Source: a virus. Taken from it: DNA of 64,000 bases. The stretch covers positions 1 to 64,000 of IMG/VR virus record IMGVR_UViG_3300050821_007016; one strand, 5' to 3'. Of the stretch, positions 7,083-29,518 are shown in pieces. Each line of letters starts with the position of its first letter. The first letter of the stretch is position 1. The translations under genes and the position numbers were made by a program. Under the pieces are notes generated by a model, which was not told the DNA's origin, ran no database searches, and saw only the letters and a program-made list of their open reading frames with translations.

Positions 7083-7083
7083 G

Positions 7084-10050: not shown

Positions 10051-10062
10051 TTATCGCTCCCG

Positions 10063-12125: not shown

Positions 12126-12887
12126 CTACGGATCGTAGAAGATGTCGACCGGGATCAGGCCGACGTGGACCTTGTCGGCGTAGTCTTGCGGGACCAGGAC
12201 AGTCTGGTTGATCTGGATGTGCGCGTCGAGCACCCAGCGCCACTCGATCTGCTGCTGGTCGTTGGTGAACGGGCGCTGGGCCGGCTCATCCGCATAGAGC
12301 GGCCGCACGTTGTTCTGCGGCGATGGCAGGTCGGCGAAGAACCGCACGCCGTTGTCGGATCGCAGCACGATGCCGACCGTCTGCGCCCACGCGTAGGCCG
12401 TGTAGTCGTCGCTGTGGAAGTCGAGCTGCATCCGCATCCGGTACGCCGCGTGCATGATCCACGTGCCCACCGAGAACGCCTCCGGCCCCGGTATGGTCAT
12501 GGAGTTGTTCAATGTGTAGGTGCCGGCCCCTCCGGGAGGGCCCGAGGTCTGGGCCGCTATGTAGGTCCCCGGCGTTACGCCGGTGCCGTCGAGCGGGTTG
12601 CCGAGCGCGATCGAGCCGATGGTGACGGCGGTGACGGTGAAGGCCTGCCCCGAGATCGAGCCGACCGCGCGCACGTCGCCGTACTGCTCGAAGTTGGTTG
12701 AAAGTCTTTCCAGAGTTACCGGCGTCATCACGACGAAGCTGCCGGTCTGCGGCTCGGCCGCGCGGTTCGCCTGCGCCGCGATCACGTCGGCGCTAGGAAG
12801 CAAGCTCTGGATGAACGCCTGCATGGCGGCCTGAGCGTCAACCTGGACCGGGGTGATGACCGATCCGATGATCGGCGTGACGGCCAT
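12126..12887 (-). CDS. Neck / tail terminator protein with inserted beta-module
   Basis: Start re-called to ATG 12887 (TGATG overlap). AQANRAAEP...FVVMTP...RLSTN, QLDF, PLYADEP.Q.PF.N.QQQ.E.RW. Confidence 0.8.
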   Translation of the reverse strand: MAVTPIIGSVITPVQVDAQAAMQAFIQSLLPSADVIAAQANRAAEPQTGSFVVMTPVTLERLSTNFEQYGDVRAVGSISGQAFTVTAVTIGSIALGNPLDGTGVTPGTYIAAQTSGPPGGAGTYTLNNSMTIPGPEAFSVGTWIMHAAYRMRMQLDFHSDDYTAYAWAQTVGIVLRSDNGVRFFADLPSPQNNVRPLYADEPAQRPFTNDQQQIEWRWVLDAHIQINQTVLVPQDYADKVHVGLIPVDIFYDP

Positions 12888-13468
12888 CAGGGCGACGAGG
12901 ACTTGTAGAACGCGGCGTCGAGCGCGGCGCCGGCGGTGGCGCTGATCACCCGGATGTTGGCGACCGGGCCGCTGTACATCAGAGGCGCCGCGGTGGTCGT
13001 CATTAGCATCCCGACCGTGGTGGTCGGAGCGCCGCCATCGTCGCGCCAGCGCACGTTCTGCGTCTCGGCCTGGAAGAGCACCGCCGTGGCCCCGTTCGGC
13101 GGCCCGACGGTCGTCAGCGAGGCGCCCGATGACGTGCAGGTCTGCGAGGCGATATAGGTTCCCGCGCCGCCGGTGCCGGTGCCCAGCGAGGCGACGAATG
13201 TGCCCGCGGTGATCCCGGTGCCGGAGAGAGGCCATCCGGGATTGATGTCGCCGGTCACGGCCGAGGCGGTGATGACGTTGCCGGCGCACGTGGCGGTGAA
13301 GCTGGCGCCGACGCAGGCGGAGAAGTTCACCTGCGAGTTGAGGCCCGCCGTCGCGATCTGGCAGACGCCGAGCGCCTGCAGCGGCAGCCCGGTCTGGAAC
13401 TGCGCCCGCGCTGGAAGCGGCAGCCAGAGCATGAAAGCGACGAACGCCGCGACGATAAATTTCCTCAT
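12887..13468 (-). CDS. Signal-peptide-bearing virion-type protein (beta-module plus small jelly-roll-like domain)
   Basis: Start ATG 13468 with GAGGA RBS; MRKFIVAAFVAFMLWLPLPARA|QFQ; C-terminal AETQNVRWRDDGGAPT..VGM motif. Confidence 0.7.
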   Translation of the reverse strand: MRKFIVAAFVAFMLWLPLPARAQFQTGLPLQALGVCQIATAGLNSQVNFSACVGASFTATCAGNVITASAVTGDINPGWPLSGTGITAGTFVASLGTGTGGAGTYIASQTCTSSGASLTTVGPPNGATAVLFQAETQNVRWRDDGGAPTTTVGMLMTTTAAPLMYSGPVANIRVISATAGAALDAAFYKSSSP

Positions 13469-13476
13469 TTCAATCC

Positions 13477-13860
13477 TCACGATCCGTTCTGCAGCGTGAT
13501 CAACGCCTTGGTCCACCCGGCTGTGATGCTGAAGCCCTCAAGTATCTTGGTCACCAACCACACGGTGCCATCGGGCAGTGTTACCAGGTCGCCGCCGTTG
13601 TTCGAGACTCGAATCAGCCCGTCGATCTCGCCGTTAAGGTAGATCACTCGGTTTGTGCCCTGCAAGTTGACGCCGTCGACTTGACGAAGATCGGGCCACT
13701 CCATCGGCTGGACCTGCGCCTGCACGGTGACGGCCGGCGCGTAGGTAGGCGTGCGAACTCCGCCCGGGCCTGTGTCGTAGCCGGTCGAGACCTGGACCGA
13801 GACCAGCATGTTTGGGTTAACCGCGCCGATCGGCCCCCTGACGATGTTGTGCAGGTTCAT
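13477..13860 (-). CDS. Head closure / head-tail joining protein
   Basis: MNLHNIVRGPIGAVNP...STGY...AQVQP...IYLNG...R...GGDL...WLV...E...W. Confidence 0.8.
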   Translation of the reverse strand: MNLHNIVRGPIGAVNPNMLVSVQVSTGYDTGPGGVRTPTYAPAVTVQAQVQPMEWPDLRQVDGVNLQGTNRVIYLNGEIDGLIRVSNNGGDLVTLPDGTVWLVTKILEGFSITAGWTKALITLQNGS

Positions 13861-14072
13861 TTCGCCCCCATCGCCGCGACGCGGGCGTGCCCTGAGAGGT
13901 GAGCGCCGAGGCCCTTGTTGGCCGACTGCGGCGCGATCTCATCGCTCCAGCTTTTCGTTGGGTCCGCATAGTCTATCGTCGCCCAGCGCGCGCCGCAGGA
14001 ATGGCAGAAGAGGTAAAAATCCCCCGAGCCGAAGTTCAGGATCAGGTGCGCGCATTCCTCGCGAGGCTTCAT
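13857..14072 (-). CDS. Small zinc-ribbon hypothetical protein
   Basis: C.H...CHSC; coupled by TGATG/ATGA overlaps on both sides. Confidence 0.5.
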   Translation of the reverse strand: MKPREECAHLILNFGSGDFYLFCHSCGARWATIDYADPTKSWSDEIAPQSANKGLGAHLSGHARVAAMGAK

Positions 14073-14401
14073 CAGAACGTCACCAGGTTGGCCGGGTTGG
14101 CGCTGAGGCGGAACATGCCGTCCTCGGCGGTGACCGGGATCGGGTCCGATGCGCCGGTGTGGATCGACCAGTAGATGTCCTGCGGCGCGTGGTTGCGCGT
14201 GTCCCACAGCGCCGTCCACAACGTTCCGATGCCGCCGGGCGGGGTCATCGGCACCGCGATCGGCGCGCTCTCCTGCGCCGGCTGGATGTTGACCGTCGCG
14301 TTGTCCGGGACCACCACGTTGTTGTTTACGTCATAGAAGGTCGTCGCGAACTGCACGGTCGCGCCGCGGATGATTATCTGGGTGTTGCCTTGCAGCGCCA
14401 T
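14072..14401 (-). CDS. Small Ig-like virion protein (possible appendage base)
   Basis: IIRGATVQFATTFYD...ATVNI...WTALWDT...IYW; alternating beta pattern; follows the repeat protein. Confidence 0.6.
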   Translation of the reverse strand: MALQGNTQIIIRGATVQFATTFYDVNNNVVVPDNATVNIQPAQESAPIAVPMTPPGGIGTLWTALWDTRNHAPQDIYWSIHTGASDPIPVTAEDGMFRLSANPANLVTF

Positions 14402-14405
14402 CGAT

Positions 14406-17400
14406 TCACCTTCCCGACGGCTCCCCACTTACCACGGTTTTTGCCGAGGCGGCAGTCACCGCCGTCGAGGCCGACGCCTGGGTGACCGTCGTGATGCCGG
14501 ACGCCTGGGTGACGATGGTCGTGGCGTAGAACACCGAGACGGTTCGAGGCAGCGACCAGCCCTGCTCGAACGGCATCGCGCCGGCCGGGTTGCGGCCTCG
14601 CCGCGCGTACATGTCCGGCGCCCCGAAGACGGTAGGCGTCAGGGGCGGCGGCGGGATGAAGGCGCCGTCGACCGTCCAGACCGCCTGGATGGCCCCGTAG
14701 ACGCGCTGGCGCGGCCTCTGGGGCGCGTCCGTCAGCTCCCAGCCTCGGTACACCCAGGTCGGAATCGACGCGTCGGTGGCCTCCGTACCGCGCGCCAGGG
14801 CGCCGGCCCGGTTGAATGGCTTCCGGTAGTGGATCGGAACCGGCTCGAAGCCCCAGATCGGCAGGGGCTGGGTGGCCTCGATGCCGTCCGCGCCGCGCGC
14901 CAGGGCGCCCGATCGCTCGGGTCGAGGATGAGGCGGCTGGACCGGCTGAACCTCAAAGCTGAACGGGAGGAACTGGAGGAACGGCTGAACCGGGTCGTTC
15001 CAGTCCCGGAACGGGTCGATCGCGCGCCGGTAGCGCTGTAGCGGTGGCTGAAAATCGAACGAGAACGGCGGCGTCGCGATTCGCTGGAACGTGAACTCGA
15101 TCCCCTGATCGCCGGCCGCGATCGCGCCGGCCTTTTCCGGGCGAGGGTGGGGAGGCTGGATGCTCTGCTGCTCGAATCCGGCCGGGTAGAAGTTCACTAG
15201 CGGGAAGTCCGACGCGTCGACGCCGCGCGGCGCGATGGCGCCAGAACGCGCCGGCCTCGGATAAGGCGGCTGCATCGACTGGACCTCGAACCCCCATCCT
15301 ACCGGTGGCCCTGGCACCACGTAGACGCCCTCGGTGCCCTGGTCGCCCGCCATGATGGCGGCGGAGCGCTCCGGGCGAGGGTGGTTCGGCTGGTGCGGCA
15401 CGCTCGGCCACCCATAAGGGAGGAAGTTGATCAGCGGGTACTCGCTGCCGTCGTCGCCGCGGGCGATCGCCGCCGAGTGCTGCTCCGGCCGCGGATGCGG
15501 AGGCTGGACCGGCTGCGCGTCGAACCCGAACGGGAAGAAATTGATCGGTGGTTGCTCGTTGCCGTCGTCCCATCGCGCCAGGGCGCCGGCCTTGATGAAC
15601 CGGTGCGACAGCTGGACCTGCGGCTGATCGAAGCCCCACCCGCTGGTGGTCGGCGACGGCGGGATGAATGCAGCCTCGATCCCGGTGTCGCCGGGATCGA
15701 ACGTCTTGCGGCGAACGCGAAACCAGGTCTGCGCCACGTCGTCGGTCCAGGGCTGGGTGCTTAAGATCGCGAAGGTGCTCTCGCCGTAGGCGCCCTGACC
15801 CCTGGTCGAAACCCGCCGGGCCATCGATGGCAGGATCGTCGGCTGAAATGCCCACGCCGAGAGCGGAGGGGCGGGGAAGACCGGGTAGTCCTCCGCCTTG
15901 TCCTTGATGGCGGGGTAGCGCCCGGCGATCGTTCTCTTCAGCATCGGAAGGGTAGGGTCGAAGCCCCAGCCACTGGTCACCGGGACCGGCGCCATGAGCG
16001 GCGCCTGCGTGCCGGAGTCGCCGGGGTCGAACGGCTTCAGGCGGCGGCGGAAGAAGGTCTGCTGGGCGTCGTCGGCCCACGGCGAGGTGCTAAAGGCCAC
16101 GAACTGGCTGTCGCCGAACGCCGCCTGCGAGCGCGCCGAGATTCGCCCGGCCATCGAGGGCTGCACGGACTGGGTCTCGAAGCCCCAGCCGGTGGTGAGC
16201 GGCGCCGGAGGAGGAATGAACACCGCCTCGTTGCCCTGGTCGCCGGCGGCGAGCGCGCCGCTCCGCTCCGGGCGCGGGTGCGGTGGTTGCGGAGGCTGAA
16301 CGTCGATGAAGATCGGCAGCGTGAGCGCCAGGAACTCGCTGCGGCCCTTGATGCCGGGGTAGCGCTGCGCCGGGGGCACGCGTCGCAGCATCGGCAGCGA
16401 CGCCTCGAAGCCCCAGCCGACCGGTGGCCCGGGCAAGACGTAGACGGCCTCGATGCCGGGTTCCCCGGCCATGATCGCTCCCGACTTCTCGCTCCGGGGA
16501 TGCGGAGGCTGGAACGAGTACTCGAAGCCCCACGTGGTCAGGGCCGGCGGCGCGACGAGCACGCCCTCGATCCCAGAATCGCCGGCCATCACGGATCCGG
16601 ACTTCTCCGGGCGCGGGTGCGGCGGCTGGACGGACTGCACCTCGAATCCCCACGGGTAGAAGTTGATGAACGGGGCCTGGTTGCCATCGTCGCTTCGCGC
16701 GATCATCCCCGATCGCCGCGCCGCTATCGACGCTCGTGCCGGCGGCTGCGGCGGTTGCACGTCCCAGCCAGCGTTGATCCAGTTGATCAGTGGAAACTCG
16801 CTGCCGTCCTCGGAGGTCGTCATCAGCAGCATGCCGCGGCGAGCGACCTTCGGCTGGAGGTAATACTCGAAGCCCCACGTCGTGGGCGGCGGGATCGGCG
16901 GGATGAACGGGGCCTCGATGCCGGGTTCCCCGGCCATGACGGCGCCGCTCCGCTCCGGCTTGGGATGCGGAGGCTGCACCGACTGCACCTCGGTGAACGG
17001 CGCCAGGACGAAGGCCGCGAACTCGCTGCGCCCCTTCGTCGCGGCGACGCGCGCCTGCCTGACGCCGGGGTTGCGCGCGACGATCGGTAACGTGGGATCG
17101 AAGCCCCAGCCTGACGTGACCATCGCCTGCTGCGCCATCACGTTCTCGTTGCCCTGATCCCCGGCCATCAGCGCCCCCGCCTTCACGAAGGGCGACTGGC
17201 GGGTGCTGTACGGGGTCGGCGGCTGGAACGATTGAACCTCCCATCCCATCGGGAAGAAGTTGACCAGCGCGCACTCGATGCCGTCCTCGCGCGGCATGAT
17301 CCCGGCGCGCTTGGCGCGGAACGCCGGTGGCTGCACCGACTGCACCTCGAAGCCCACGTTCTGCCAGACGATCAGCGGCCACTCGATGCCGTCCTCCTTC

Positions 17401-18377
17401 GGTGCGATCGCGCCGATCGGTTTTCTCGCCGGCTTGGCAGGCGGCTGCGGAGGCTGGACCTCGAAGCCGACGTTCTGCCAGGGCGGGAAGATCGCGAACT
17501 CGGCCTTGCCCTTGATGCCCGGGTAGCGACGGGTGATGAGCGGCCTCTGCGACATCAGCGGCAGCGTCGGTTCGAAGCCCACGTTCTGCCAGTTGATCTT
17601 GACCTGCTCGATGCCGTCGTCGCCGCGCATGGTCGCCGCGCGCTGACGGGCCTTCGGCGCCCTGTTCACCAGCGGGTTGCTCATGCCCGCGCCCGAGGAC
17701 TCCCATCCCCAGATCGGCCCCTGCTGGATCAGCAAGGAGACGCCGAGCGACGTCTGGGTCGTGCCGAAAGTCCAGTTATTGGCTCCGGTGGCGCTGGCGC
17801 TCGACAGCGCGAGCGACGCCGCGCCGAATCCGAGCTGCGACGCCGTGCCCGCCACGGTCAGGATGCTCGTCATGCCCGTCGGTATCGTCACGGTGGTGGC
17901 GCCGAGCGCGCCCTCGAAGATGTAGCAGACGAGGGTGTCGTTGACGTTGCCCGCGCCCGGCGTGATGGTTGGCGACGGCGGGGTCGTGCTGGTCGCATTC
18001 AGCGACGTGGTGGGGCTGCCGTCGATCAGGGCCGCGCCCGCGCCCGCCCACTCCTCGAACGACCACTCGCCGCCGGCGGTCGAGGTCGTCGTCCAGGTGA
18101 AGGCGCCCGAGAACGATGCGTTCGGAGACGGCGCTACCTTGGTGAAGATGGCCGCCGACGCCAACCCGCCGGACGCGGTCGTCGTGGTGGCGAGCGTCGT
18201 CGTCCACCCGCCCGGCGGGGTGATCGCGGTGGGCGCCGTCGCGCCGCCCACCAGAATCGTGACGATCATCAGGTTGCCGGCGGTGACGCTGCCATTGCTG
18301 GTCACGGTGATCGTCGTGACGCCGGACCCGATCGTGGCGTTGTTCTTCGTCGCGGCTACTATCGTCGGGTTCGGCAT
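14406..18377 (-). CDS. 1323-aa protein: N-terminal Thr/Gly-rich beta domain plus ~27 Pro-rich repeats
   Basis: Long ORF with genome-like codon usage and AAGGCGGG upstream. Repeat consensus (W/F)GF(E/D)VQSVQPPHPRPERSGAIMAGDxGIEAxF. Confidence 0.85.
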   Translation of the reverse strand: MPNPTIVAATKNNATIGSGVTTITVTSNGSVTAGNLMIVTILVGGATAPTAITPPGGWTTTLATTTTASGGLASAAIFTKVAPSPNASFSGAFTWTTTSTAGGEWSFEEWAGAGAALIDGSPTTSLNATSTTPPSPTITPGAGNVNDTLVCYIFEGALGATTVTIPTGMTSILTVAGTASQLGFGAASLALSSASATGANNWTFGTTQTSLGVSLLIQQGPIWGWESSGAGMSNPLVNRAPKARQRAATMRGDDGIEQVKINWQNVGFEPTLPLMSQRPLITRRYPGIKGKAEFAIFPPWQNVGFEVQPPQPPAKPARKPIGAIAPKEDGIEWPLIVWQNVGFEVQSVQPPAFRAKRAGIMPREDGIECALVNFFPMGWEVQSFQPPTPYSTRQSPFVKAGALMAGDQGNENVMAQQAMVTSGWGFDPTLPIVARNPGVRQARVAATKGRSEFAAFVLAPFTEVQSVQPPHPKPERSGAVMAGEPGIEAPFIPPIPPPTTWGFEYYLQPKVARRGMLLMTTSEDGSEFPLINWINAGWDVQPPQPPARASIAARRSGMIARSDDGNQAPFINFYPWGFEVQSVQPPHPRPEKSGSVMAGDSGIEGVLVAPPALTTWGFEYSFQPPHPRSEKSGAIMAGEPGIEAVYVLPGPPVGWGFEASLPMLRRVPPAQRYPGIKGRSEFLALTLPIFIDVQPPQPPHPRPERSGALAAGDQGNEAVFIPPPAPLTTGWGFETQSVQPSMAGRISARSQAAFGDSQFVAFSTSPWADDAQQTFFRRRLKPFDPGDSGTQAPLMAPVPVTSGWGFDPTLPMLKRTIAGRYPAIKDKAEDYPVFPAPPLSAWAFQPTILPSMARRVSTRGQGAYGESTFAILSTQPWTDDVAQTWFRVRRKTFDPGDTGIEAAFIPPSPTTSGWGFDQPQVQLSHRFIKAGALARWDDGNEQPPINFFPFGFDAQPVQPPHPRPEQHSAAIARGDDGSEYPLINFLPYGWPSVPHQPNHPRPERSAAIMAGDQGTEGVYVVPGPPVGWGFEVQSMQPPYPRPARSGAIAPRGVDASDFPLVNFYPAGFEQQSIQPPHPRPEKAGAIAAGDQGIEFTFQRIATPPFSFDFQPPLQRYRRAIDPFRDWNDPVQPFLQFLPFSFEVQPVQPPHPRPERSGALARGADGIEATQPLPIWGFEPVPIHYRKPFNRAGALARGTEATDASIPTWVYRGWELTDAPQRPRQRVYGAIQAVWTVDGAFIPPPPLTPTVFGAPDMYARRGRNPAGAMPFEQGWSLPRTVSVFYATTIVTQASGITTVTQASASTAVTAASAKTVVSGEPSGR
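14560..17720 (-). repeat. Degenerate coding tandem repeats (~35-40 aa units)
   Basis: I count about 27-28 aromatic-Gly-aromatic-acid anchors (WGFE, VGFE, GWD, FGFD etc.). Recurrent DNA such as ctcgaagcccca and ggcggctg/ggaggctg is visible on the plus strand. Confidence 0.85.
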
Positions 18378-18397
18378 GCCCGCCTTTTAGCAGATTC

Positions 18398-19096
18398 CTA
18401 CCATTCACTAACGACGAAGATGCCGGGCGCGCTCGGCGGCGGCGGGCCAGCTGCCGGCGCCCACGCCACGCCGACGAGGATCGACGACGAGCCGGTCGAG
18501 GCCGTCGAGGCGGTGACCGTCACCGAACCGGTCGAGGTCGTATGGGCGGCGCTGCAGTCCGAGCTTCCGCCGGAGCCGGTGACCGACGTGTAGTAGTCCT
18601 GCGTGGCGTTGGTCCACGACATGCTGTCGACGATGCCGCCGCGATTCATGAACGCCTCGGCCGACCCGCCTCCCGCCGGCACCGAGATCGAGAACGACGG
18701 GTTGTCCGTCGTCGATGTAGCCGTCACCGCCGAGGACGGCGACGACTGGCTGCCGGTCAGGGCATAAAGCGCGCACTGCATGCGGTCGGAGGTGGCGGCT
18801 GTGGACAGCGTCACCACCACGTTGCCGGACGTCCCGGTCGGCACGGCGGCGTACCAGGCGTCGCCGATCAGTGCATTGTCGCCGGAGGTGATCTGCGCGT
18901 TGGTGACCTGCGTCGCGGTGACGCCGGCGATCGTGACGGATGAATAGGATGCACCGGTCTGGTTGACGCGGTCGGTGAGGATCGCCTGCAGGATTCGGTC
19001 GGACGACGGGGTGCCGAGGTTGAGCGCGGAGAACGTGACGACGTTGCTGGTCGAGCCGTCCGTGCCCTTGTCGACGTTGGTATAGCTGAAGGCCAT
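18398..19096 (-). CDS. Ser/Thr-rich beta-sandwich virion (adhesin-like) protein, C-terminus ...GIFVVSEW
   Basis: TFSALNLGTPSSDR...SSVTIAGVTATQ...AAVPTGTSGNVVVT; resembles fibre-tip domains. Confidence 0.7.
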   Translation of the reverse strand: MAFSYTNVDKGTDGSTSNVVTFSALNLGTPSSDRILQAILTDRVNQTGASYSSVTIAGVTATQVTNAQITSGDNALIGDAWYAAVPTGTSGNVVVTLSTAATSDRMQCALYALTGSQSSPSSAVTATSTTDNPSFSISVPAGGGSAEAFMNRGGIVDSMSWTNATQDYYTSVTGSGGSSDCSAAHTTSTGSVTVTASTASTGSSSILVGVAWAPAAGPPPPSAPGIFVVSEW

Positions 19097-19100
19097 TGTG

Positions 19101-19748
19101 TCACCACTCCGACGATGCGATGCCGAGGATGTTCGGCACGATGACGCCGCCGGAGGGCGGCAGCCAAGAGTAGGCTTGTATCATCGCGCCGGAGCCGGAG
19201 GACGCGTTGGTGAACCCCACCGTCTGCGCGCCCGCCGCGCCGACGTTGAGATTGTACTCCGCCTGGTCGAACTGGATGATGTCGTCCAGACCCATGCTCG
19301 TATAGCCGCCGGCCGCGGAGGCGCTGCCGCCGAGGTTGAGCAGCTGACCCACGACCAGGGCGTTCGCTCCGCCGGTCGTGATGCCGATGCTGATGTTGGC
19401 GCCGCTCGTGCTCGAATTGCCGACCGAGGTATCGTAGGTGGCCGGGCCACCGAGGACCTGGAAGGCCCAGAACTGGCTCGTCGGCGTCCCGCTGAGCCCA
19501 AGCGTGAACGTCTTGCTTCCCCCCGAGCTGAGCGTGCAGTCGGCCATCTGCATCTGCCAGAAGCCGGACAGCTGCGTCCCCCTGAGGTTGACCGTCTCTC
19601 CGGGGCAGGTGATGCCGGACACGGTGGTGGGCTCCGTCATGTAGCCGATGATCACGGTTTGGCCCGCCGTGCACCCGGTAAGGGTGAGCACGTTGGTGGC
19701 CGTGCTGGAGTCGTTGAAGACCGGAGAGACGCCGAGGGTGAAGGCCAA
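19101..19748 (-). CDS. Beta-sandwich virion (adhesin-like) protein, C-terminus ...LGIASSEW
   Basis: TTG start with AGGGG RBS; same size and pattern as its neighbour. Confidence 0.7.
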   Translation of the reverse strand: MAFTLGVSPVFNDSSTATNVLTLTGCTAGQTVIIGYMTEPTTVSGITCPGETVNLRGTQLSGFWQMQMADCTLSSGGSKTFTLGLSGTPTSQFWAFQVLGGPATYDTSVGNSSTSGANISIGITTGGANALVVGQLLNLGGSASAAGGYTSMGLDDIIQFDQAEYNLNVGAAGAQTVGFTNASSGSGAMIQAYSWLPPSGGVIVPNILGIASSEW

Positions 19749-19761
19749 ATGATTTCCCCTG

Positions 19762-21762
19762 TCAGAGCTGCGGGAAGTTGAAGCCGCCCCGGATGTAGTT
19801 GTTGGCCGCGTTGGCGGTGTAAGGGACCGACCAGACGCCGCGGCCGCGGTTGCGGGCGTTGTTGATGAAGTCGATGGTGGTGCCGGCGCCGCCGATGCTG
19901 GTGCTGTAGCTGCCGAGGGTGCGGCCGGGCGCCGGGAATGGTTCGCCGGGCTGGCCGCTATTGATTCCCTGCGGATCGAGGGAGTTGCCGGAGAGCGTGA
20001 GGCCCGTGGCCTGATTGTCTATGCCGCCGAAGGAGATCGCGTCGCCGTTGCCGACCGCCGCGAGCGAGTTGGCCGCCAGCGTGACCGTGGTCGACGTGGC
20101 GCTGCTGGTGACGCCGAGGAACGTGTTGGTCGTGGCGTCGATGACGGTGTAGTTGTTCCCGGCGTTGGTTTGGATGAACGACGGCACCGAGGCGAAGTGC
20201 AGCACGGCGCTCGCCGTCGAGGTGGTGCCGTTGGTGATGGCGCTGGCCCCGGCCGTCTGGTTATAGACGATGTTGTTGGTGACGGTGTCCGAGGTCAGCG
20301 TGTGGAAGAGGGTCGCGGTGCCGCTGGAGCTGGCGTTGACGCTGATGGTCAGCGTGCCGTTCGCCCCGGCCGTGGTGAATCCGGACGCGGCCGTGACCGT
20401 CGCCGTGCCGTTGCCCGGCAGCCTGGCCGGGCACGAGATGATCATCCCGTTCGGCCAGCCAAGATTGTTGTAATCGTTGTTGCTGTTGTCGACGTTGGTG
20501 ATGGTGTTCTGATTGAGGGTGAAGTTGCCGGTGACCTGGTAGCCGTTGCTGCTGTTGCCGTCCTGAACCTGGATGCCGAACCCCGAAAGGCTGGTGCTGA
20601 TGCCGTTGGAGATGATGTTGTGGTCAATGGTTGAAGGTGCGCCGCCGTTGTTGAGCAGGCCCTCACCGTCCGACTCCGCCAACGCCCCGGTGATGTCGGT
20701 CGATTCCTGCACCACGTTGTAGGAGATGACGCTGGGGCCGATGCCGATGTTGATGGCCCCCGCCGGTCGAATGAAGAGGTTGTCGTAGACGGTGCCGCCC
20801 GGGCGAATCTGCTCGCTGCTGGCAGGCTGCGAGCAGATGTTGTTTCGGAAATAACCCGGCCCGGTGCCGACCACCGCGATGTAGACGTTGTGGTTGAGGT
20901 TGCACATGATGGCGCCGGTGACGCTGGCGTTCCAGCCGTTGTGGTCGAACGTGCAGTCGTCGATCACCCAGTTGTTCTCGATGTTCGACAGGAAGATGCC
21001 CTGCGACTCGCCGGGCTGATCGTTGAGGTGCGAGTTGGCGTTGTAGTTGTCGACGAAGATGCACTTCCGGATCCATAGTCCGTTGAAGTCCAGCGGCTCC
21101 CAGATGATGCTGTCCCAGAAGAAGCGGAACAGGCAGTCCTCGAACAGGAATTTGCTTCCGACGCTGTTGTTGTTGTTGAAGAAGCCGTCGATCTCCAGCG
21201 TGGTATCGCCGGACACGAAGCCTCCGTTGTTGGGGTCGCGGCTATAGGCGTAGAAGTCCCAGCCGACGATCGCGACGTTGTTGCATTTCTGGAGGTTGTC
21301 CATGAAGATTATGGCGCCGCCCGCGCCGACGTGCGCGACGCTCGACTGGATGCTGGGTCGCGCTCCCGTGCCGTAGGTCGTGCAGACGATCATGCCGCTG
21401 GCGGTGTGGTCGCCGTAGACGGTGAACGCTGGCGAGATCACCGCGCCGGGGCCGGAGAAGCTGCCGAAGCTGCTTAAGTCGTCGTTCAGGAACGTGTCGC
21501 CCTGGTTGAGTAGCAGCCAGTCCGGCTTGCCGTCGCGGATTAACGATAGCCCTTTGCTGATGGTTTTGACCGGACTGGCTTGTGTGCCGGGATTAGTGTC
21601 CAGACCCGCGTTGGCGACGTAGATTTGATTTGTCCCCGTATTGGCGGGGTTGTTCCCCTGCAAGACCGGCGCGGTCGGCGTGAACGTGGTGAAGCCGTTG
21701 TTGCCGGGCGCCTGCTGGACCGGAAACTGGATTATCGGGGCGAGAGGTCCGGTCCTGTACAT
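19762..21762 (-). CDS. Right-handed parallel beta-helix protein (depolymerase/adhesin-like)
   Basis: Start re-called to ATG 21762. IYVANAGLDTNPGTQASPVKTISKG, DWLLLNQGDTF, YGTGARP, Asn-ladder repeats (IDDCTFDHNGW, HNVYI, FRNNI, IDHNII). Confidence 0.8.
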   Translation of the reverse strand: MYRTGPLAPIIQFPVQQAPGNNGFTTFTPTAPVLQGNNPANTGTNQIYVANAGLDTNPGTQASPVKTISKGLSLIRDGKPDWLLLNQGDTFLNDDLSSFGSFSGPGAVISPAFTVYGDHTASGMIVCTTYGTGARPSIQSSVAHVGAGGAIIFMDNLQKCNNVAIVGWDFYAYSRDPNNGGFVSGDTTLEIDGFFNNNNSVGSKFLFEDCLFRFFWDSIIWEPLDFNGLWIRKCIFVDNYNANSHLNDQPGESQGIFLSNIENNWVIDDCTFDHNGWNASVTGAIMCNLNHNVYIAVVGTGPGYFRNNICSQPASSEQIRPGGTVYDNLFIRPAGAINIGIGPSVISYNVVQESTDITGALAESDGEGLLNNGGAPSTIDHNIISNGISTSLSGFGIQVQDGNSSNGYQVTGNFTLNQNTITNVDNSNNDYNNLGWPNGMIISCPARLPGNGTATVTAASGFTTAGANGTLTISVNASSSGTATLFHTLTSDTVTNNIVYNQTAGASAITNGTTSTASAVLHFASVPSFIQTNAGNNYTVIDATTNTFLGVTSSATSTTVTLAANSLAAVGNGDAISFGGIDNQATGLTLSGNSLDPQGINSGQPGEPFPAPGRTLGSYSTSIGGAGTTIDFINNARNRGRGVWSVPYTANAANNYIRGGFNFPQL

Positions 21763-24092
21763 TCCCTGAGTGCCCTCGCCACGTCGTCGATCACGTCCTT
21801 CCAGTAGCCGGGCGTGTCGAACTCGCGCTGCCGAAACAGCCGAATCGAAGGGTACCACGGGCTGGCCTCGTTCCACGAGGCTCCCGGGTGCCAGCACATG
21901 AAGTGCCAGCTCGCGCCGTCGCGCTGCATCATCACCCACGTCGGCTTGCCCATCGCCCCGGCCAGGTGCGCCACCGCCGTGTCGACCGTGATCACCAGGT
22001 CGAGGTTGTCGATTAGCGCCGCCGTCTCCTCGAAGTTGGGCTCCTTCGACAGCAGGTCGCATATCTTGTGGCCATGCTCCTCGCGGCCATCGCCGACCAT
22101 CAGGCTGACCAGCGCGTCGTCATTTTCGATCGCGCCCAGCAGCGGGATGCAGTCCGAGAACCGCATCGACTTCATCCGGCCGTAGCGCTCCAGCCAGATG
22201 CTCTGCGTCTTGCGGATGCCCGATGACCAGCACAGGCCGATCTTGCGCCCCTTGACCTCGGCCAGCAGCTCGGCGAACCCCTGCGAGAGCTTGGGGTCCG
22301 CCTTGAGGTACGGTCCGTCCCACGGCACCGTGTCGATGTCGGTCCCGAACGCATAGGGGAGATCGCCGATCGGGACGTGGTAGTCGATCGTCGGCGGCAG
22401 GCCGACCACCCCGGGGTAGTCGCTCGCCATCGTCACGCACTCCACCTGCGGGAAGTTGCGCCGCGCCAGCGAGAGCATCTCGTCCCCGACCTCGTAGCGG
22501 ACGTGGAAGCCGCGCTCGACCATCAGCGGGAAGTACCGCCACATCGAGATGTTGTCGCCGTAGCCGGCCTCCTGGTGGACGTGGATGACGGCCTTGCGCC
22601 CGTCCAGCTGCGCAGGCTGGTCGACGCTGCCCTCCCAGCGCGGCGCCAGGAAGCGATGGTGCGGCACATAGAGCGCGTACTGCGTGACCTCGTGCGGACC
22701 CCACACCGAGTGCTCCGCGAAGCTCTCCTTGTAGCGGCCGAGGCACTGCAGCGGCAGCGACCGGTTCCAGTGCGCCATCGGCAGGTTACGGCAGTTCAGC
22801 TCGATCGCCTTGTCGAAGTACTCGATCGCCTTCTCGTGGCGCGCGAGCCGGTACTCGATCATCGCCAACAGGTGCCACGCGTCGCCCTTGCGCGCGCCGA
22901 CCTCCAGCATGGAGCGGCACATCTTCCGCACGGTGTCATAGTCGCGGGAGTCCAGCGCGATCACGCCGCGGTTCAGCAGCGCGTCGCAGAATTCATTCGG
23001 GTTGTCGCCTTTGAACGCAGCCTCGATCTGGCGGTCGTAGGCGCGGATCGTCGCCTCGGTGTCCATCAAGTCGCTCTCGACTCCCCCCAGCGTCTGCCAC
23101 GCCAGAGGGTTGTCCGGGGCAATCTCGGTGGCGATCTCCGCGTGGCGCCGCGCCGCCTTGATCGCGCCGGCCGCCACCATCGACTTCACCAGGTCGCAGC
23201 GGTGCTCGATGCATTGCGGGTCGGCGTCCAGCGCCATGAAGAACCAGTCGGCCGCGAAGCCGAACCGCTTCATCTCATGGGCGTTCGTCCCGAAGTTGGC
23301 GCAAGCTTCCGCGCGGGCGATCCGCCACTTGCCGCTCTTGAACGGCGGCTGCGTCAGGTACATCACCAGCCGGTACAGCCGGTCGGCCGCCAGCATGTTG
23401 CCTTCCTCGACGTGCCTCCTGGCGCGCAGGACCACCTGCTCCAGCGAGCTGACGTCCGAGGTCGGTCCCGTCATTCGAGTGAACCCGACCTGGTACTCGC
23501 AAAATTCGATCTCGGCCCCGACCGATAGCGCGTACTCCGCGACCAGCCCGCCTTTGCCGAGTATTTTTCTCTGTGGATAATCGTCGAGTAGGCTCATGCT
23601 GTCGTCCACCGCGACCATCGATTCCTCGCGCAGCGACGGCATGATCGCCATTAGCTCGTTGAAGTGGTGGACCTGCGAGACGGTCTCCGCAGACCAGTCG
23701 TGCGACGACGCGTCGAGGTAGAGCAGGTCGACCACGATCTCCGGTCCGGAGATGAGCTTGAGCCCTTGCACGCTGTCGATGTTCATGACCGTGACGTTCG
23801 GGCACAGCTTGCATGCCCGCGCTGCCTTCTCCGCGTCGATCTCGAACGACATCGCGGTCGATGGCGGGTGCGTCTCGATGTACTTATCGAACAGGATCGT
23901 GCTGCAGCCATTGCCGGCCCAGTTGTCCGGCTCCTCGATGCAGCCGGTCTCGACGATCCGCACCTGGCGGTCGAACTTGTCGAGGTGCTCGAACATCCGA
24001 CGGAACGACCCGTCCCTGCGGGTCGGCCGCCACTTGGCGAGCCTCGGCGCGGCGTACTCGTCGAACCACTTCCAGAACTCGGCTGACCTCAT
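21732..24092 (-). CDS. SAM methyltransferase - TPR - GT-B glycosyltransferase (GT9-like) fusion
   Basis: Start re-called to ATG 24092 (ATGA overlap). IVETG...DLLYLD...VAVDD...GKG (Methyltransf_24-like); TPRs (PDNPLAWQTLG, DAWHLLA, AHWNRS); EAGYGD, DYHVPIGDLP, IGLCWS, TAALIDNLDLVITVDTAVAHLAGAMGKP, SPWYPSIRLFRQ. Confidence 0.88.
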   Translation of the reverse strand: MRSAEFWKWFDEYAAPRLAKWRPTRRDGSFRRMFEHLDKFDRQVRIVETGCIEEPDNWAGNGCSTILFDKYIETHPPSTAMSFEIDAEKAARACKLCPNVTVMNIDSVQGLKLISGPEIVVDLLYLDASSHDWSAETVSQVHHFNELMAIMPSLREESMVAVDDSMSLLDDYPQRKILGKGGLVAEYALSVGAEIEFCEYQVGFTRMTGPTSDVSSLEQVVLRARRHVEEGNMLAADRLYRLVMYLTQPPFKSGKWRIARAEACANFGTNAHEMKRFGFAADWFFMALDADPQCIEHRCDLVKSMVAAGAIKAARRHAEIATEIAPDNPLAWQTLGGVESDLMDTEATIRAYDRQIEAAFKGDNPNEFCDALLNRGVIALDSRDYDTVRKMCRSMLEVGARKGDAWHLLAMIEYRLARHEKAIEYFDKAIELNCRNLPMAHWNRSLPLQCLGRYKESFAEHSVWGPHEVTQYALYVPHHRFLAPRWEGSVDQPAQLDGRKAVIHVHQEAGYGDNISMWRYFPLMVERGFHVRYEVGDEMLSLARRNFPQVECVTMASDYPGVVGLPPTIDYHVPIGDLPYAFGTDIDTVPWDGPYLKADPKLSQGFAELLAEVKGRKIGLCWSSGIRKTQSIWLERYGRMKSMRFSDCIPLLGAIENDDALVSLMVGDGREEHGHKICDLLSKEPNFEETAALIDNLDLVITVDTAVAHLAGAMGKPTWVMMQRDGASWHFMCWHPGASWNEASPWYPSIRLFRQREFDTPGYWKDVIDDVARALRECTGPDLSPR

Positions 24093-24607
24093 AGCACCCC
24101 GTCTCCCCCGGTGCTGAGCGCGCCAGTGCGGCCGACCCTGCGCTGGGTGTCGTCGTTGGCGAACCGCACCCCGCAGTGCGGGCACGCCTTCCACGACAGC
24201 TCGATCCGACCATCGCAGGAGAAGCAGACCGGGTCCGGCGCGCGGCCGCCCGGCAGTTTCGCGTCCTTCGGGTGGATATAGGTCTGGTTCTCGCCGACGA
24301 AGCCGTCGTCATAGTAGCGGACCTCGCCGGTCCCGGCGCAGCGCTTGCACTCCCAGCCGCGGCCCTTGCAGTCCGGGCACTCGCCCTTGACGTAGTGATG
24401 CCAGGGGCAGCCCAGCTTCTTGCCCATGACTATCACGTGGTCGGTGCCGGGCTCGTGCTTGGCGCAGCCGAAGTCGGCGTCGGTCTCGATCTTGAGCTGC
24501 TCGCACGCGCCCTTACCCTCGGCGCATTGCAGGTTGAAGATGCGGTCGCCGTTCTCGTAGTCGGTGACCCGCGCGGTGATCCAGTGCAGGCAGTCGGAGC
24601 AGCTCAT
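24089..24607 (-). CDS. Multi-zinc-finger protein (DnaJ-type CxxCxGxG pair plus zinc ribbons)
   Basis: CSDC, CPDCKGRG, CKRCAGTG, CFSC, CPHC. Confidence 0.7.
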   Translation of the reverse strand: MSCSDCLHWITARVTDYENGDRIFNLQCAEGKGACEQLKIETDADFGCAKHEPGTDHVIVMGKKLGCPWHHYVKGECPDCKGRGWECKRCAGTGEVRYYDDGFVGENQTYIHPKDAKLPGGRAPDPVCFSCDGRIELSWKACPHCGVRFANDDTQRRVGRTGALSTGGDGVL

Positions 24608-24849
24608 TTCACCACCGTCAGAACGGCCTCTTCGGGGTTGACGTGCTGGTTAACCAGGTCCCGCCCGATCGCATAGGTCAGGATGCGCTCGATCGAATCC
24701 CTCTCTTGCTGGTGCAGGCAATTGTGGCCGAGCAGAAGGACCGAGTAGAACTTCCGTCTGTCCCCGTCGTCGGCGAACTGATCCGCCACCGCGCCCAGCA
24801 GAAGGGAAATGTCGGTATTGATTGATGCTTTTCGTTTTGCGTTGGCCAT
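24604..24849 (-). CDS. Hypothetical protein
   Basis: AGGAG RBS before ATG 24849; GTGA/ATGA coupling downstream. Confidence 0.6.
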   Translation of the reverse strand: MANAKRKASINTDISLLLGAVADQFADDGDRRKFYSVLLLGHNCLHQQERDSIERILTYAIGRDLVNQHVNPEEAVLTVVK

Positions 24850-24872
24850 CGTTCTTCTCCTTTGTTTGGGTT

Positions 24873-25181
24873 TCAGTAGCAGCGCCAAGCCTGCATGTGG
24901 ATGCGCGAGTTAATGTAGTGCTCCGTCTCCGCCATCTCAGCCCGCCGCTCGTAGGGGACGCACGGCTTGCCGACGCACTTCAGGCAGATCAGCTTCATGC
25001 AGCCGCGGCAGATGTCGACGTGGTCCATCATGACGCGGCGGGACGGAAACGCCGTGAGGGCTTGGCAGTGGCTGCATGTCGAGGAGTGATCCTCGATCTC
25101 AGTCCCGGTCTCGCCGTCGAAGAAGACGTTGATGCCGCCGGGTCTGAACTTGAGCAGTGCAGGCAAGAGATCGACCCCCAT
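24873..25181 (-). CDS. Cys-rich zinc-binding hypothetical protein
   Basis: TCSHC...ICRGCMKLICLKC...CVPYE. Confidence 0.65.
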   Translation of the reverse strand: MGVDLLPALLKFRPGGINVFFDGETGTEIEDHSSTCSHCQALTAFPSRRVMMDHVDICRGCMKLICLKCVGKPCVPYERRAEMAETEHYINSRIHMQAWRCY

Positions 25182-25249
25182 AAAAAGCTGCGGCCCCGTG
25201 TTCTTTCACACAGGGCCGCTGAATTCGTCAAGGGACTTTTTGCTCTAAC

Positions 25250-25732
25250 TCAGCGCTCGATGAAGGAGATGGTGCCGACCGCCGAGGCCGCATAGCCCGA
25301 GGTGAGCGAGGCGCATCGGAGGCCAAGGGCGCTCGCCGACGCCGGGAGGATGATGTTGTCTCCGTCATCCAAGGCGCGCCAGCGGTAGCTTCCGCGCTGG
25401 TTGATGCCCCATTGCTTCAGGTTGAGGCCGAGGCCGCCGGTCGTGTAGTTGGTCGGCTCGGCGGTCGCCGCGTTCATGAACAGCGTGGCCGCGACGTAGT
25501 CGGCCGGGTCAAGCAGGTTGGCCGCGAGCGTGGTGCCGGTCATGCCCGCCGTCGAGGGGGCGCGGGAGAGGTCCCAGAGCATCGCCGCGTCCTGGGAGGC
25601 GTAGACGCCGAACTGTCCAAGCTCCACCTCATAGATTTGCGCCCGCTTCGTGCCGCCGCCCCAGAGGATGCCGCCGGTCTTCAGGACGGTGCCAACGCCG
25701 TTGTAGAGCACGTAAGCAGAGAAGTTTGCCAT
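25250..25732 (-). CDS. Putative virion appendage subunit (small all-beta protein)
   Basis: GAGGA RBS; RAQIYEV, LDPAD, EPT, GINQRGSYRWRA, IILP, terminal F.E. Confidence 0.7.
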   Translation of the reverse strand: MANFSAYVLYNGVGTVLKTGGILWGGGTKRAQIYEVELGQFGVYASQDAAMLWDLSRAPSTAGMTGTTLAANLLDPADYVAATLFMNAATAEPTNYTTGGLGLNLKQWGINQRGSYRWRALDDGDNIILPASASALGLRCASLTSGYAASAVGTISFIER

Positions 25733-25768
25733 GACCGTAGGTCCTCTTCGGAATCGCCTGGTTGATGA

Positions 25769-25797
25769 TGCTTACCGGAAAAACCGCTCCGGCACAA
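25769..25797 (-). promoter_or_regulatory. Candidate internal promoter (TTGTGC-N17-TAAGCA)
   Basis: Intergenic, upstream of the appendage block; spacer holds a CCGGA/TCCGG inverted repeat. Confidence 0.35.
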
Positions 25798-25802
25798 TTC
25801 GG

Positions 25803-26441
25803 TTAGTTCATCGCGAAGATTTGGCCGAAGTTGAACACCACGTCGCCGTTGGTGGTCGATGAGTTGCCGGTGATCGCCACGGTGATCGTCGCGTTCTCCG
25901 CGAAGGTCGTCTGCGACGGGGCGATCAGGGCGCCGATCGTGCCGCCGATCTGGGCCGATTCATGGATCGCGTTCTGGGTGTTCGATCCTGCCGCGCCGTA
26001 CTTGCAGAGGATGGCGCCGATCTGCCATCCGCCGGTCGCACTGGACGTGAAGCTCGCGATCGTGGTGCCGCCGCTGACCGTGGCGCCGAGGACCGGGGTC
26101 GTCGGGTTGACGATGATCTTGAGCGTCTTGGCGTTGGCGTTCGGGGCGTTGCCGCCGGCGAAAATCTGGACCTCGCGGTTGGCAATGTCGAACCCATTGG
26201 CCGGGATCGTCATAAGCGAGAGAATCTTGTCCGCCGCGGTCCCGCTGGGAGACCTGCCTGCTGACGGGTTGTCGACGGCGATATTGCCGTCATCGCCCAT
26301 CTGGTTCGGGTTCTGCGCATTGGTGCCGAAGGTAGCCGCGCCGTTGCCGAAGGAGGCGCCGATCGCCCCAGCCTGCGCGGACCCGAACAGCACGTCCCCG
26401 ATCGTCGAGGAGAAGAGGACCAGTTGGCTCTTGAGGGACAT
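25803..26441 (-). CDS. Putative head/neck decoration protein
   Basis: AAAGGAG RBS; Gly/Ala/Thr-rich beta protein among neck genes. Confidence 0.65.
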   Translation of the reverse strand: MSLKSQLVLFSSTIGDVLFGSAQAGAIGASFGNGAATFGTNAQNPNQMGDDGNIAVDNPSAGRSPSGTAADKILSLMTIPANGFDIANREVQIFAGGNAPNANAKTLKIIVNPTTPVLGATVSGGTTIASFTSSATGGWQIGAILCKYGAAGSNTQNAIHESAQIGGTIGALIAPSQTTFAENATITVAITGNSSTTNGDVVFNFGQIFAMN

Positions 26442-26456: not shown

Positions 26457-26903
26457 TTAGGTTTTAACTTCGTAGTCGACGCTGTTGAGCATGTGCCCGG
26501 TGTCGACCAGCGGCTTGTCGCTTCCCTTGCGGCGAATCGTTGCCGGTTTCAGGGGTGGCTCGTTCGTGTCTACAATACTTTGCCGGAGTTGTCCTGCTAT
26601 CGCTTCGCCGGCCAGCGCCAGCGCCTGCGATGCGTCCATGTCGGTGCTCTTGAGCAGTCCGGCGATCGCCTTCGGCCACTCGCTCGACTTGGCGTCGATC
26701 ATGTGCCGGAAGAACGGGCGTGGCGGGATGCCTGCGGCCGGGGCGCCGAACTCCTGGATCGCGGCGATCATCGCCACCGGCTTGCCGTCCGGGTAGGTGG
26801 CGCCCTCCAGGAAACCGACCCGCAGCGTACCACCCCTCGACAGGCCGCGGGCTATCTTCTGCAGCGCGGCCTCCATCTTCTTGCCGCCGCTGATCGTCGC
26901 CAT
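26457..26903 (-). CDS. Neck / tail completion protein (HK97 gp10-like)
   Basis: Start ATG 26903; LRVGFLEGATYPDG...AAIQEFG...IPPRPFFR...KPLVDTGHMLNSVDYEV. Confidence 0.85.
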   Translation of the reverse strand: MATISGGKKMEAALQKIARGLSRGGTLRVGFLEGATYPDGKPVAMIAAIQEFGAPAAGIPPRPFFRHMIDAKSSEWPKAIAGLLKSTDMDASQALALAGEAIAGQLRQSIVDTNEPPLKPATIRRKGSDKPLVDTGHMLNSVDYEVKT

Positions 26904-27388: not shown

Positions 27389-27901
27389 TTACCAGCCTCG
27401 TCCTATGCCGCGAAACCATCCCGGCCACAGCGTCACGCCCGGCGGGATCGCGCCGGCTCTGCCGACGGGGACCGCGGTGCGATAGGCCGCTGTGAAAGCC
27501 CAGAATTGCGCGCCGTAGCGCGTCTGCATGTACCACGCCTGCGACGGCGATCCGGCATTGAGATCGCCCATATCCGTCCCGACCGACACCGACCCCTCGC
27601 TGGCGCTCTTGATCATGCCGACCAGCGATGCCTCGGGCGATCCGGTCGCGGCGATGTTGCCGGACGAATCGCGCGGCGCCATCAGCCACGCGATGTGCGA
27701 GGTCAGAAGATAGAGCAGCGTCAGAAGCGTGTTGCCGGGCGGGGTCTCCGAAGCGGAATAAGCCGGGTTGCTCGTGTTGTTGGGGAAGAGGACGCTGGCC
27801 TGGTTGAAATAGTCGGTCGCCATCGCCTGAGTTACGTTCAGGAATTCTGGCTTGCTTTGCTGCCAGTAGCTGTAGTCGAACGTGACCGCTGGGGCGCTCA
27901 T
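27389..27901 (-). CDS. DUF4054 head-tail adaptor
   Basis: FDY..W....PEF, LLYLLTSHIA, LVG.IKSASEGSVSV, WYMQTRYGAQFW..TAAYR. Confidence 0.9.
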   Translation of the reverse strand: MSAPAVTFDYSYWQQSKPEFLNVTQAMATDYFNQASVLFPNNTSNPAYSASETPPGNTLLTLLYLLTSHIAWLMAPRDSSGNIAATGSPEASLVGMIKSASEGSVSVGTDMGDLNAGSPSQAWYMQTRYGAQFWAFTAAYRTAVPVGRAGAIPPGVTLWPGWFRGIGRGW

Positions 27902-29396: not shown

Positions 29397-29450
29397 CTCG
29401 TGGTCTCCCCTGCCGTTTCGGCGCGGAGCTTATGCACAATTTGCTACAGA

Positions 29451-29486
29451 ACACAAACGGGCCGGAGAGGGGACCCTCCGACCCGT
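29451..29486 (-). terminator. Probable intrinsic terminator after the major capsid gene
   Basis: ACGGGTCGGAG-loop-CTCCGGCCCGT followed by TTGTGTT. Confidence 0.6.
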
Positions 29487-29518
29487 CACGCGCTGGCCCT
29501 TCCTAGCAAGGACTTTTA

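Follow-up and report, generated by a model that had tools for sequence, protein, structure and literature searches.

Twelve co-oriented genes on the minus strand occupy positions 13857-26441 of an IMG/VR phage genome (IMGVR_UViG_3300050821_007016), between the neck genes neck1 and p127. The DNA analysed (the window) comprises bases 1-64000 of this complete 74,647-bp genome, here called G000, which has a 97-bp terminal repeat and 65% G+C and belongs to a myovirus whose structural genes are all on the minus strand. The block and its two flanks are listed below from the upstream to the downstream end, with protein lengths in amino acids (aa) and, for the smallest open reading frames (ORFs), the G+C content at third codon positions (GC3).

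26457-26903, minus strand: neck1, upstream flank of the block; tail completion/Neck1 protein, HK97 gp10-like (phrog_222, E 2e-51)
25803-26441, minus strand: p212, flanking gene; p212/G1_p200 family
25250-25732, minus strand: p160, first core gene; predicted 160-aa jelly roll
25190-25219, minus strand: terminator-like hairpin between p160 and zf102; 12-bp stem with 9 G-C pairs, T-run
24873-25181, minus strand: zf102, core; small Zn-binding protein, conserved position after p160
24604-24888, minus strand: p94, non-core; small ORF, GC3 0.72
24089-24607, minus strand: zf172, core; Zn-ribbon protein, 4-nt overlap with the glycosyltransferase gene
21732-24092, minus strand: MT-TPR-GT, core; 786-aa enzyme with a methyltransferase-like region (~1-230), tetratricopeptide repeats (TPR, ~250-470) and a GT9-like glycosyltransferase (GT) domain of GT-B type (~480-786)
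19762-21762, minus strand: cargo 1; 666 aa, probable right-handed beta-helix
19101-19748, minus strand: cargo 2 (sew215); 215 aa, Ser/Thr-rich, C-terminus ...GIASSEW
18398-19096, minus strand: cargo 3 (sew232); 232 aa, Ser+Thr fraction 0.31, C-terminus ...FVVSEW
14406-18377, minus strand: rep1323; N-terminal head (aa 1-225), ~26 Pro-rich units of 39 aa, Ser/Thr-rich C-terminal tail
14072-14401, minus strand: ig109; 109 aa, in the neck-located version only
13857-14072, minus strand: p71; small Cys-containing ORF, GC3 0.81
13477-13860, minus strand: p127, downstream flank of the block (phrog_1912)

Neighbouring genes of the block are spaced by -31 to +70 nt, and GC3 lies at 0.72-0.94 across all its gene calls, in agreement with an earlier description of this DNA (the original prediction) as a tightly coupled, co-oriented block. 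The promoter that it had placed at 25769-25797 was not found by a consensus scan. Two of the small ORFs are private to this genome, p94 having neither a homologue in related loci nor a family match and p71 no homologue in related loci.

Late structural operons of uncultured soil myoviruses carry a conserved mobile cassette, of which the block is one instance. Loci were gathered by searches with p160 and with the enzyme, which located the cassette, at 40-75% identity, in 23 IMG/VR viral contigs and in about 10 fragments from metagenomes. The core order p160-zf102-zf172-enzyme is kept in all contigs of sufficient length, and all 16 loci that extend far enough have a repeat protein like rep1323 downstream of the enzyme; the slot between enzyme and repeat protein holds 0-7 kb of unrelated, interchangeable genes. 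In a second complete genome (G001, 73 kb) a matching block lies at the same place and reads Neck1, p200, p163, zf96, zf170, MT-TPR-GT (53% identity), five different genes, a 1360-aa repeat protein, an ig109 homologue (69% identical) and p127. In a large protein collection, p160 and GT homologues come from contigs of identical length in 11 cases. The predicted self-contained unit, for which a co-occurrence search had been proposed, is borne out by this linkage. Parts of the region occur in soil metagenome DNA runs (0.24-0.38 of words), and among the sequencing runs listed as containing it there is no RNA run. No cultured phage was seen to have the cassette when 50,697 GenBank phage records were searched at the DNA and protein level; the matches were one to p160 (37%) without partners and three partial ones to the GT or methyltransferase. 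Literature searches gave no paper describing the cassette and no relevant match for the repeat motif or for phage scaffoldin/dockerin systems.

The cassette is always co-oriented within head-neck gene arrays and translationally coupled to them, at three kinds of site. It lies between Neck1/p200 and p127 in G000, G001 and the contigs L124 and L100, after p127 in L097 and L122, and in L116 between portal/MuF-like genes and the protease/minor head/major head protein (MCP) genes of an otherwise syntenic head module. These positions do not lend support to the suggestion that the product is specifically a neck filament attached at the neck. The proposed anchoring through the small Ig-like protein is likewise unsupported: ig109 has homologues only in the neck-located version (G001 and L124, besides G000 itself), was not found after the repeat protein on non-neck backbones, and has no family match. 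The possibility that ig109 is a split-off C-terminal domain of the class-B repeat proteins was rejected (hhalign E 0.46).

Neck1 itself is common, with homologues in more than 1000 cultured phages, and the junction that it forms with p127 was surveyed in 80 IMG/VR loci retrieved with Neck1. A p127 homologue starts ~9 nt downstream of neck1 in about 55 of the 80, which agrees with the statement that the block splits two normally adjacent genes. Closer relatives carry one additional gene, of the p212 family, between the two, and in a few relatives the inserts are different and measure 1-10 kb; in general, the junction of Neck1 and p127 is a hot spot for inserted genes. The p212/G1_p200 family directly follows neck1 in the cassette-free loci L003, L006, L008, L031, L035, L009 and L019, so that p212, formerly counted into the block as a decoration-like protein, is a flank and no member of the cassette.

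Two observations on neck inserts and cassette variants stand apart. In L012, nine unrelated genes (positions 1742-11443, 9.7 kb) are inserted between Neck1 and p127; a Rossmann motif, G-G-A-G-Y-L-G, opens one of their products, which may be a sugar epimerase/dehydratase, and another product has 810 aa. In the divergent cassette of L102, a NUMOD3 (homing-endonuclease-type) protein is encoded upstream, and a Vgb_lyase-family beta-propeller (E 1e-96) and a 302-aa protein lie between the two Zn-protein genes and not in the usual slot (L102 coordinates noted: 7292-8098 and 10850-11872).

Placed between neck genes, the enzyme gene is linked to the adjacent genes by translational coupling, and its product was described as a fusion of methyltransferase, TPR and glycosyltransferase. 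The latter two parts are supported by TPR_1/2/8/12 matches at residues ~260-450, N-terminal to the GT-B domain in the same polypeptide, and by a match to PF01075 (GT9) of 29.5-31 bits against a cutoff of 22, but over only 35 residues (684-718; profile positions 171-205 of 247). A heptosyltransferase motif is seen; the NCBIfam heptosyltransferase models stay far below their cutoffs, and a PDB sequence search with the GT gave only TPR designs or nothing. The methyltransferase is sub-threshold here (PF13578, Methyltransf_24, 13.1 bits against a cutoff of 26.3, profile positions 7-104 of 105), though PF13578 is found on many homologues of 45-60% identity. Residues 25-205 match phrog_24975, and a 14-sequence alignment shows motif I (E-T-G-C...G-x-S-T) to be invariant, as are E48, T49, G50, C51, G62, S64, T65, D127 and D163-D164. 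Some homologues of ~550 aa lack the methyltransferase domain altogether. Neither a signal peptide nor a transmembrane segment is visible in the enzyme sequence.

TPR-GT9 proteins number more than 6800 in the protein collection, and the best cellular homologues of the enzyme are encoded 3-6 kb from a Flagellin_N gene in an alphaproteobacterial metagenome-assembled genome (MAG; G002). A characterised protein of this layout is FlmG of Caulobacter crescentus, a cytoplasmic flagellin O-glycosyltransferase in which a TPR domain that binds the acceptor is followed by a GT-B domain (PMC7591256). The phage enzyme likewise has its TPR array N-terminal to GT-B, and FlmG is encoded next to its polymerising substrate; the phage enzyme differs in its extra N-terminal methyltransferase-like domain, in its place in a virion operon and in having no pseudaminic-acid pathway nearby, and the two are likened by architecture only. 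The FlmG-like architecture and the cellular homologues near flagellin support protein glycosylation as the function of the enzyme. The same two features could point to an acceptor protein of the host, for example flagellin or an adhesin on the cell surface, modified for takeover or superinfection exclusion with the other cassette proteins as decoys or accessory factors. We regard this as very unlikely: the gene stands in a late structural operon with no early-gene context, it is strictly linked to p160 and the repeat protein, and a host-directed enzyme gives no reason for the tag system described below.

Phage-encoded glycosyltransferases that modify proteins of the phage's own particle have been described for mycobacteriophage virions (Freeman et al. 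2023, cited in PMC12582341). There, as here, the glycosyltransferase gene lies beside or within the structural genes. As far as the citing paper relates that work, the mycobacteriophage system differs in its hosts, in its acceptors, which are capsid and tail-tube subunits, and in having no TPR-GT9 fusion, repeat scaffold, tag system or Zn proteins.

The repeats of the 1323-aa protein, described beforehand as Pro-repeats, were confirmed: a hidden Markov model (HMM) detects 21 units of 39 aa and about 5 variant units can be added. Across 182 units from 15 homologues the consensus is G-W-E-(I/V)-Q-P-x-Q-P-P-H-P-R-x-E-R-x-G-A-...-G-D-D-G-x-E-...-F. Repeat proteins are 740-1600 aa long with 10-28 units, a number that varies even on the same backbone and thereby argues against the proposed role as a ruler. 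They have no Pfam, PHROG or PDB sequence relative, and PDB sequence searches with the N-domain profile and with the repeat region gave no match.

The N-terminal domain of rep1323, hereafter the head or N-domain, was modelled with AlphaFold2 (AF2) as a beta-sandwich of two jelly-roll halves, with a predicted local distance difference test (pLDDT) score of 91.4. In VIA-align comparisons the halves score Z 5-6.4 (best Z 6.4) with a phage needle knob, PRD1 P5 and C1q/TNF-like folds. Of the 46 representatives of the N-domain family, many are proteins of 205-255 aa that stand alone. The repeat protein of L112, L119, L121 and L123 has a repeat unit at its very N-terminus, and exactly these four loci encode a free head-domain protein in the slot (HMM E 1e-9 to 1e-6). 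A Gly-rich domain likewise stands alone in G001 and L117 and forms part of the repeat protein in L114, by an alignment that is compositionally biased. Judged by these homologies, a head domain can form the N-terminal part of the repeat protein or be encoded separately in the slot, a Rosetta-stone link between heads and the putative scaffold.

The original prediction had held the two ~220-aa proteins of the slot, both of which end in SEW, to be related to this N-domain. BLASTP among sew215, sew232 and the N-domain gave no match, single-sequence hhalign was not significant, and sew232 has no detectable homologue in related loci and no significant hhalign alignment with the N-domain family. Comparison of the sew215 and N-domain families gave hhalign E 8.6e-4 with a probability of 23%, so that kinship of the SEW proteins to the N-domain is only suggestive. 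Only three homologues of sew215 were detected, cellular ones included; one has a signal peptide, and none keeps the terminal EW. The prediction of very Ser/Thr-rich cargoes holds, sew232, the head domain and sew215 being the most Ser/Thr-rich proteins of the genome (Ser+Thr 0.24-0.31).

Cargo 1, the remaining slot protein, was named a beta-helix protein beforehand. It has no Pfam, PHROG or PDB sequence match and no homologue in related loci; its nearest named ESM Atlas clusters all belong to the beta-helix/NosD/Pel9A clan (scores 0.88-0.92), and as a lead only it is probably a right-handed beta-helix. Cargo in other cassettes comprises BNR/sialidase-like domains, Vgb-lyase propellers, Gly_rich_2 and weak beta-helix domains, in line with the notion of interchangeable cargo.

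The SEW endings belong to a wider pattern. Slot proteins of 165-488 aa and of different folds, in at least nine contigs, end in a tag G-phi-x-x-x-[E/D]-W-COOH that follows a Pro/Ala/Ser-rich linker. An [ED]W ending is present in 11 of 50 slot ORFs as against none of ~290 other ORFs of the same loci, with one further case two genes after a repeat protein; in cassette-free relatives it occurs in 2 of 4888 six-frame ORFs, both of which look spurious. Within this genome only sew215 and sew232 carry the tag, which is confined to the cassette. It may serve to attach cargo to the scaffold, or to offer acceptor proteins to the enzyme's TPR arm; binding of C-terminal peptides is common among TPR domains.

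A long multi-unit protein encoded together with diverse glycan-active or glycan-binding proteins that share a short C-terminal signature, with fused and free versions alternating, is reminiscent of the cellulosome. The cassette differs in its unit size (39 aa against ~150 for cohesin) and tag length (~7 residues against ~70 for dockerin), and its docking is suggested by analogy. There is no sequence relation to cohesin or dockerin, in that neither the repeat protein nor the tagged proteins have a Pfam match, and no natural phage example of scaffoldin and dockerin was found in the literature. A viral counterpart of scaffoldin-dockerin logic can nevertheless be envisaged as plug-and-play display, in which a virion scaffold of 10-28 Pro-rich units would take interchangeable lectin or glycosidase modules through a 7-residue tag ending in Glu-Trp, the parts being sugar-coated before assembly by a TPR-guided glycosyltransferase/methyltransferase with two Zn-finger helpers. 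In this full form we consider the idea unlikely.

The first core gene, p160, belongs to a family of 353 clusters, nearly all from soil, with no Pfam domain; in the cassette loci zf102 always comes directly after it. Its AF2 model (pLDDT 86.6) is an 8-strand jelly roll carrying an invariant Thr-Thr in a low-confidence loop. VIA-align gives Z 9.0 with a nanovirus coat protein, 8.5 with the KHP40 trimeric cement protein and 7.0-8.2 with Ena pilus subunits, besides TNF-like folds; the alignment with 7dou_4 (Z 8.5) covers 106 of 124 residues at a root-mean-square deviation of 2.6, that with 3j4u_H has Z 6.4, and unrelated jelly rolls score alike. Many uncharacterised phage proteins are among its BFVD matches, a PDB sequence search with the p160 profile gave no match, and the p160 and N-domain profiles are unrelated. 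In G000 the gene is not adjacent to the MCP gene (29519-30634) and lies 3.8 kb downstream of it, after neck1. MW202566 encodes a homologue of 37% identity two genes past its putative MCP, with neither enzyme nor repeat protein.

The terminator-like hairpin after p160, a strong one that the original prediction did not mention, suggests a higher output of p160 than of the enzymes. Only some relatives (L108 and the L113/L102 group) have a similar hairpin at this place, and a conserved terminator there was rejected, being present in few lineages.

The window holds a second protein with a p160 signature, of 232 aa (41273-41971, minus strand), which has a twin-arginine-type leader (SRRFFL...) and no PHROG match. 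It shares only the most conserved p160 motif, G-I-N-x-R-G-x-Y-R-W-R-A-L-x-D-x-D (BLASTP E 1e-6; p160 HMM E 2e-6, profile positions 104-137), and may be an exported partial paralogue.

Both Zn proteins, predicted as such, have conserved Cys/His sets. In zf102 these are C36, H38, C39, C58, C61, C66, C69 and C74 (23 homologues), with weak FYVE/Zn-finger matches only in Pfam; in zf172 they are C3, C6, C35, C48, C77, C80 and C90 (22 homologues), with two DnaJ-type CxxCxGxG motifs, CPDCKGRG and CKRCAGTG, and weak double-zinc-ribbon matches. Some flagellin glycosyltransferases need a small specificity factor encoded in cis (10.1101/2023.12.03.569772).

The likeness of p160 to trimeric cement proteins raises the question of whether the cassette encodes a single machine at all. 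The protein could be a capsid cement or decoration that the enzyme glycosylates as a glycan shield, as in mycobacteriophages, with the repeat protein and its cargo as an independent fibre travelling along. Partial sets of genes fit such a split: the MW202566 homologue has neither GT nor repeat protein, L093 has p160 with no detectable partners, L019 has an N-domain protein and no cassette, and virion glycosylation is known in actinobacteriophages, as the paper citing Freeman 2023 (PMC12582341) relates. Among family members of at least 40% identity, however, none of the main components (p160, Zn proteins, GT, repeat protein) is seen without the others, and they move jointly among three genomic positions, which makes separate machines distinctly unlikely.

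We tentatively favour, as possible though short of probable, the reading that the cassette product is an accessory virion fibre, glycosylated and fitted with cargo either by fusion or through the tag, where we infer both the virion location and the glycosylation. The fibre would stand on the head or the neck, depending on the phage, with the repeat protein as its stalk or scaffold and with lectin-like or glycan-degrading heads joined to it covalently, by fusion, or through the C-terminal tag. An abundant jelly-roll subunit, p160 would either anchor the fibre on the capsid in the manner of trimeric cement proteins or form a polymer along its length. While still unassembled in the cytoplasm, the Ser/Thr-rich heads, p160 or both would be picked by the TPR arm for O-glycosylation by the GT domain; where present, the methyltransferase domain would next act on the sugar or on the protein, and the two Zn proteins might act as chaperones or specificity factors. 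The likely purpose would be reversible adhesion to, or digestion of, glycans of the host surface or matrix. Support comes from the confinement of the cassette to structural operons together with folds typical of virion surface parts, and from the likeness of the cargo to receptor-binding or depolymerase proteins. The linkage of the core, the fusion and fission of heads, the tag, the FlmG-like layout of the enzyme, the lack of signal peptides and the hairpin after p160 also count in its favour. Ordinary tail-fibre and baseplate genes elsewhere in the genome indicate that the cassette product would be an extra structure.

Optional surface structures encoded in head-neck arrays are familiar from the collar whiskers of T4 (fibritin, wac) and from the head fibres and neck appendages of phi29. 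With these and the KHP40/BPP-1 cement proteins the cassette shares the location, and fold matches suggest a likeness to jelly-roll cement trimers and beta-helix appendages. There is no homology, however, and a glycosyltransferase of their own, Zn proteins, a Pro-rich stalk of 39-aa units and a C-terminal tag are absent from all of these systems. Bacillus Ena fibres, with jelly-roll pilus subunits and C1q-like tip fibrils, offer a second structural parallel through p160 (Z 7.0-8.2) and through the head domain, which scores Z ~5 against C1q/BclA-type knobs. These values are in the range of chance arrangements, p160 lacks the Cys-rich N-terminal connector of Ena, and there is no sequence relation.

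Several points weigh against a virion fibre. The system is known from genes, and its association with the virion is deduced from position and fold. Position by itself is weak evidence, since the neck is a general hot spot and several inserts there have signal peptides. As for fold, the structural matches of p160 and the head are all below Z 9.1, so that only a common arrangement may be shared and kinship is unproven. Repeat-protein C-termini fall into unrelated classes, and neither a constant neighbour nor a conserved anchor protein accompanies the cassette. Sugar-nucleotide genes are absent from the block. The units of the stalk have no conserved Ser/Thr and no position above 28% Ser+Thr among the 182 aligned, which makes them unlikely O-glycan acceptors, a role for which they were considered and rejected. 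N-domain and sew215 homologues elsewhere carry Sec or Tat (twin-arginine) leaders, and the partial p160 paralogue of this genome has a twin-arginine leader too.

The leaders bear on a different product altogether, a late, soluble, cellulosome-like complex of scaffold and enzymes that is released at lysis and digests or binds extracellular polysaccharide or debris, or acts on the host envelope. Such a complex would need no conserved anchor or fixed cassette position, would suit cargo that resembles glycan-degrading enzymes, and would agree with the secreted relatives of the head domain, the Tat-leader paralogue of p160 and the exported proteins in the neck hot spot of relatives. In that region, Sec- or Tat-like signal peptides open the proteins of L011 11014-11616 and 13876-15897, of L072 10537-11292, 11889-12464 and 12475-15213, and p209 of the present genome (window 12887-13516), which would not be expected of components of a cytoplasmically assembled virion. 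The cassette proteins themselves, however, have no signal peptides, the constant orientation and coupling of the cassette in head-neck arrays tie it to virion genes, and the p160 fold and its distant homologue near an MCP gene point to the capsid; we therefore take a released complex to be unlikely.

The position of the cassette in L116, between portal/MuF-like genes and the protease/scaffold gene, could also suggest that the repeat protein is an internal head or ejected protein whose packaging p160 and the enzyme serve. Lectin- or knob-like heads and depolymerase-like cargo would make little sense inside a capsid, and the other cassette positions are at the neck, so this idea is scarcely credible.

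Were the accessory-fibre reading correct, the cassette would be a widespread and wholly uncharacterised route by which phages add or swap host-binding or matrix-degrading functions with the tail untouched, and the first candidate system for virion protein glycosylation in phages outside the actinobacteriophages. The tag and the pattern of fusion and fission are directly testable handles, and a natural tag-scaffold pair could serve phage display or engineering.

The other structural genes assigned in the window are the following.

42216-43898, minus strand: terminase
35878-39333, minus strand: portal fusion
34907-35770, minus strand: MuF-like head morphogenesis protein
31654-33873, minus strand: protease/scaffold
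29519-30634, minus strand: MCP, 371 aa, GC3 0.94 (phrog_264, E 6e-53)
27389-27901, minus strand: DUF4054 adaptor
within 12126-13289, minus strand: tail terminator
10063-12060, minus strand: sheath
9607-10050, minus strand: tube
7084-8916, minus strand: tape measure
2785-4200, minus strand: baseplate wedge
807-2333, minus strand: tail fibre

The MCP gene overlaps an ORF at 29430-30524 on the same strand (364 aa), whose GC3 of 0.42 and Ser+Thr fraction of 0.02 mark it as a wrong frame; wrong frames in this high-G+C genome remain open and still yield tblastn matches in relatives. The portal ORF encodes 1151 aa with N- and C-terminal extensions past the portal core and an endonuclease-like PHROG match at residues 10-98, and its homologue in L116 has 1694 aa. 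A module of ~70 aa (phrog_21413/phrog_38233) recurs in the baseplate wedge and sheath, in p387/p209 of the terminator region (12126-13516, minus strand) and in the minor head protein p319 (30657-31616, minus strand). The 97-bp terminal repeat is exact at the ends of both complete genomes, G000 (74.6 kb) and G001 (73.2 kb), and in each a gene spans the assembly ends, a gene of the tail-fibre region in G000 and the repeat protein in G001.

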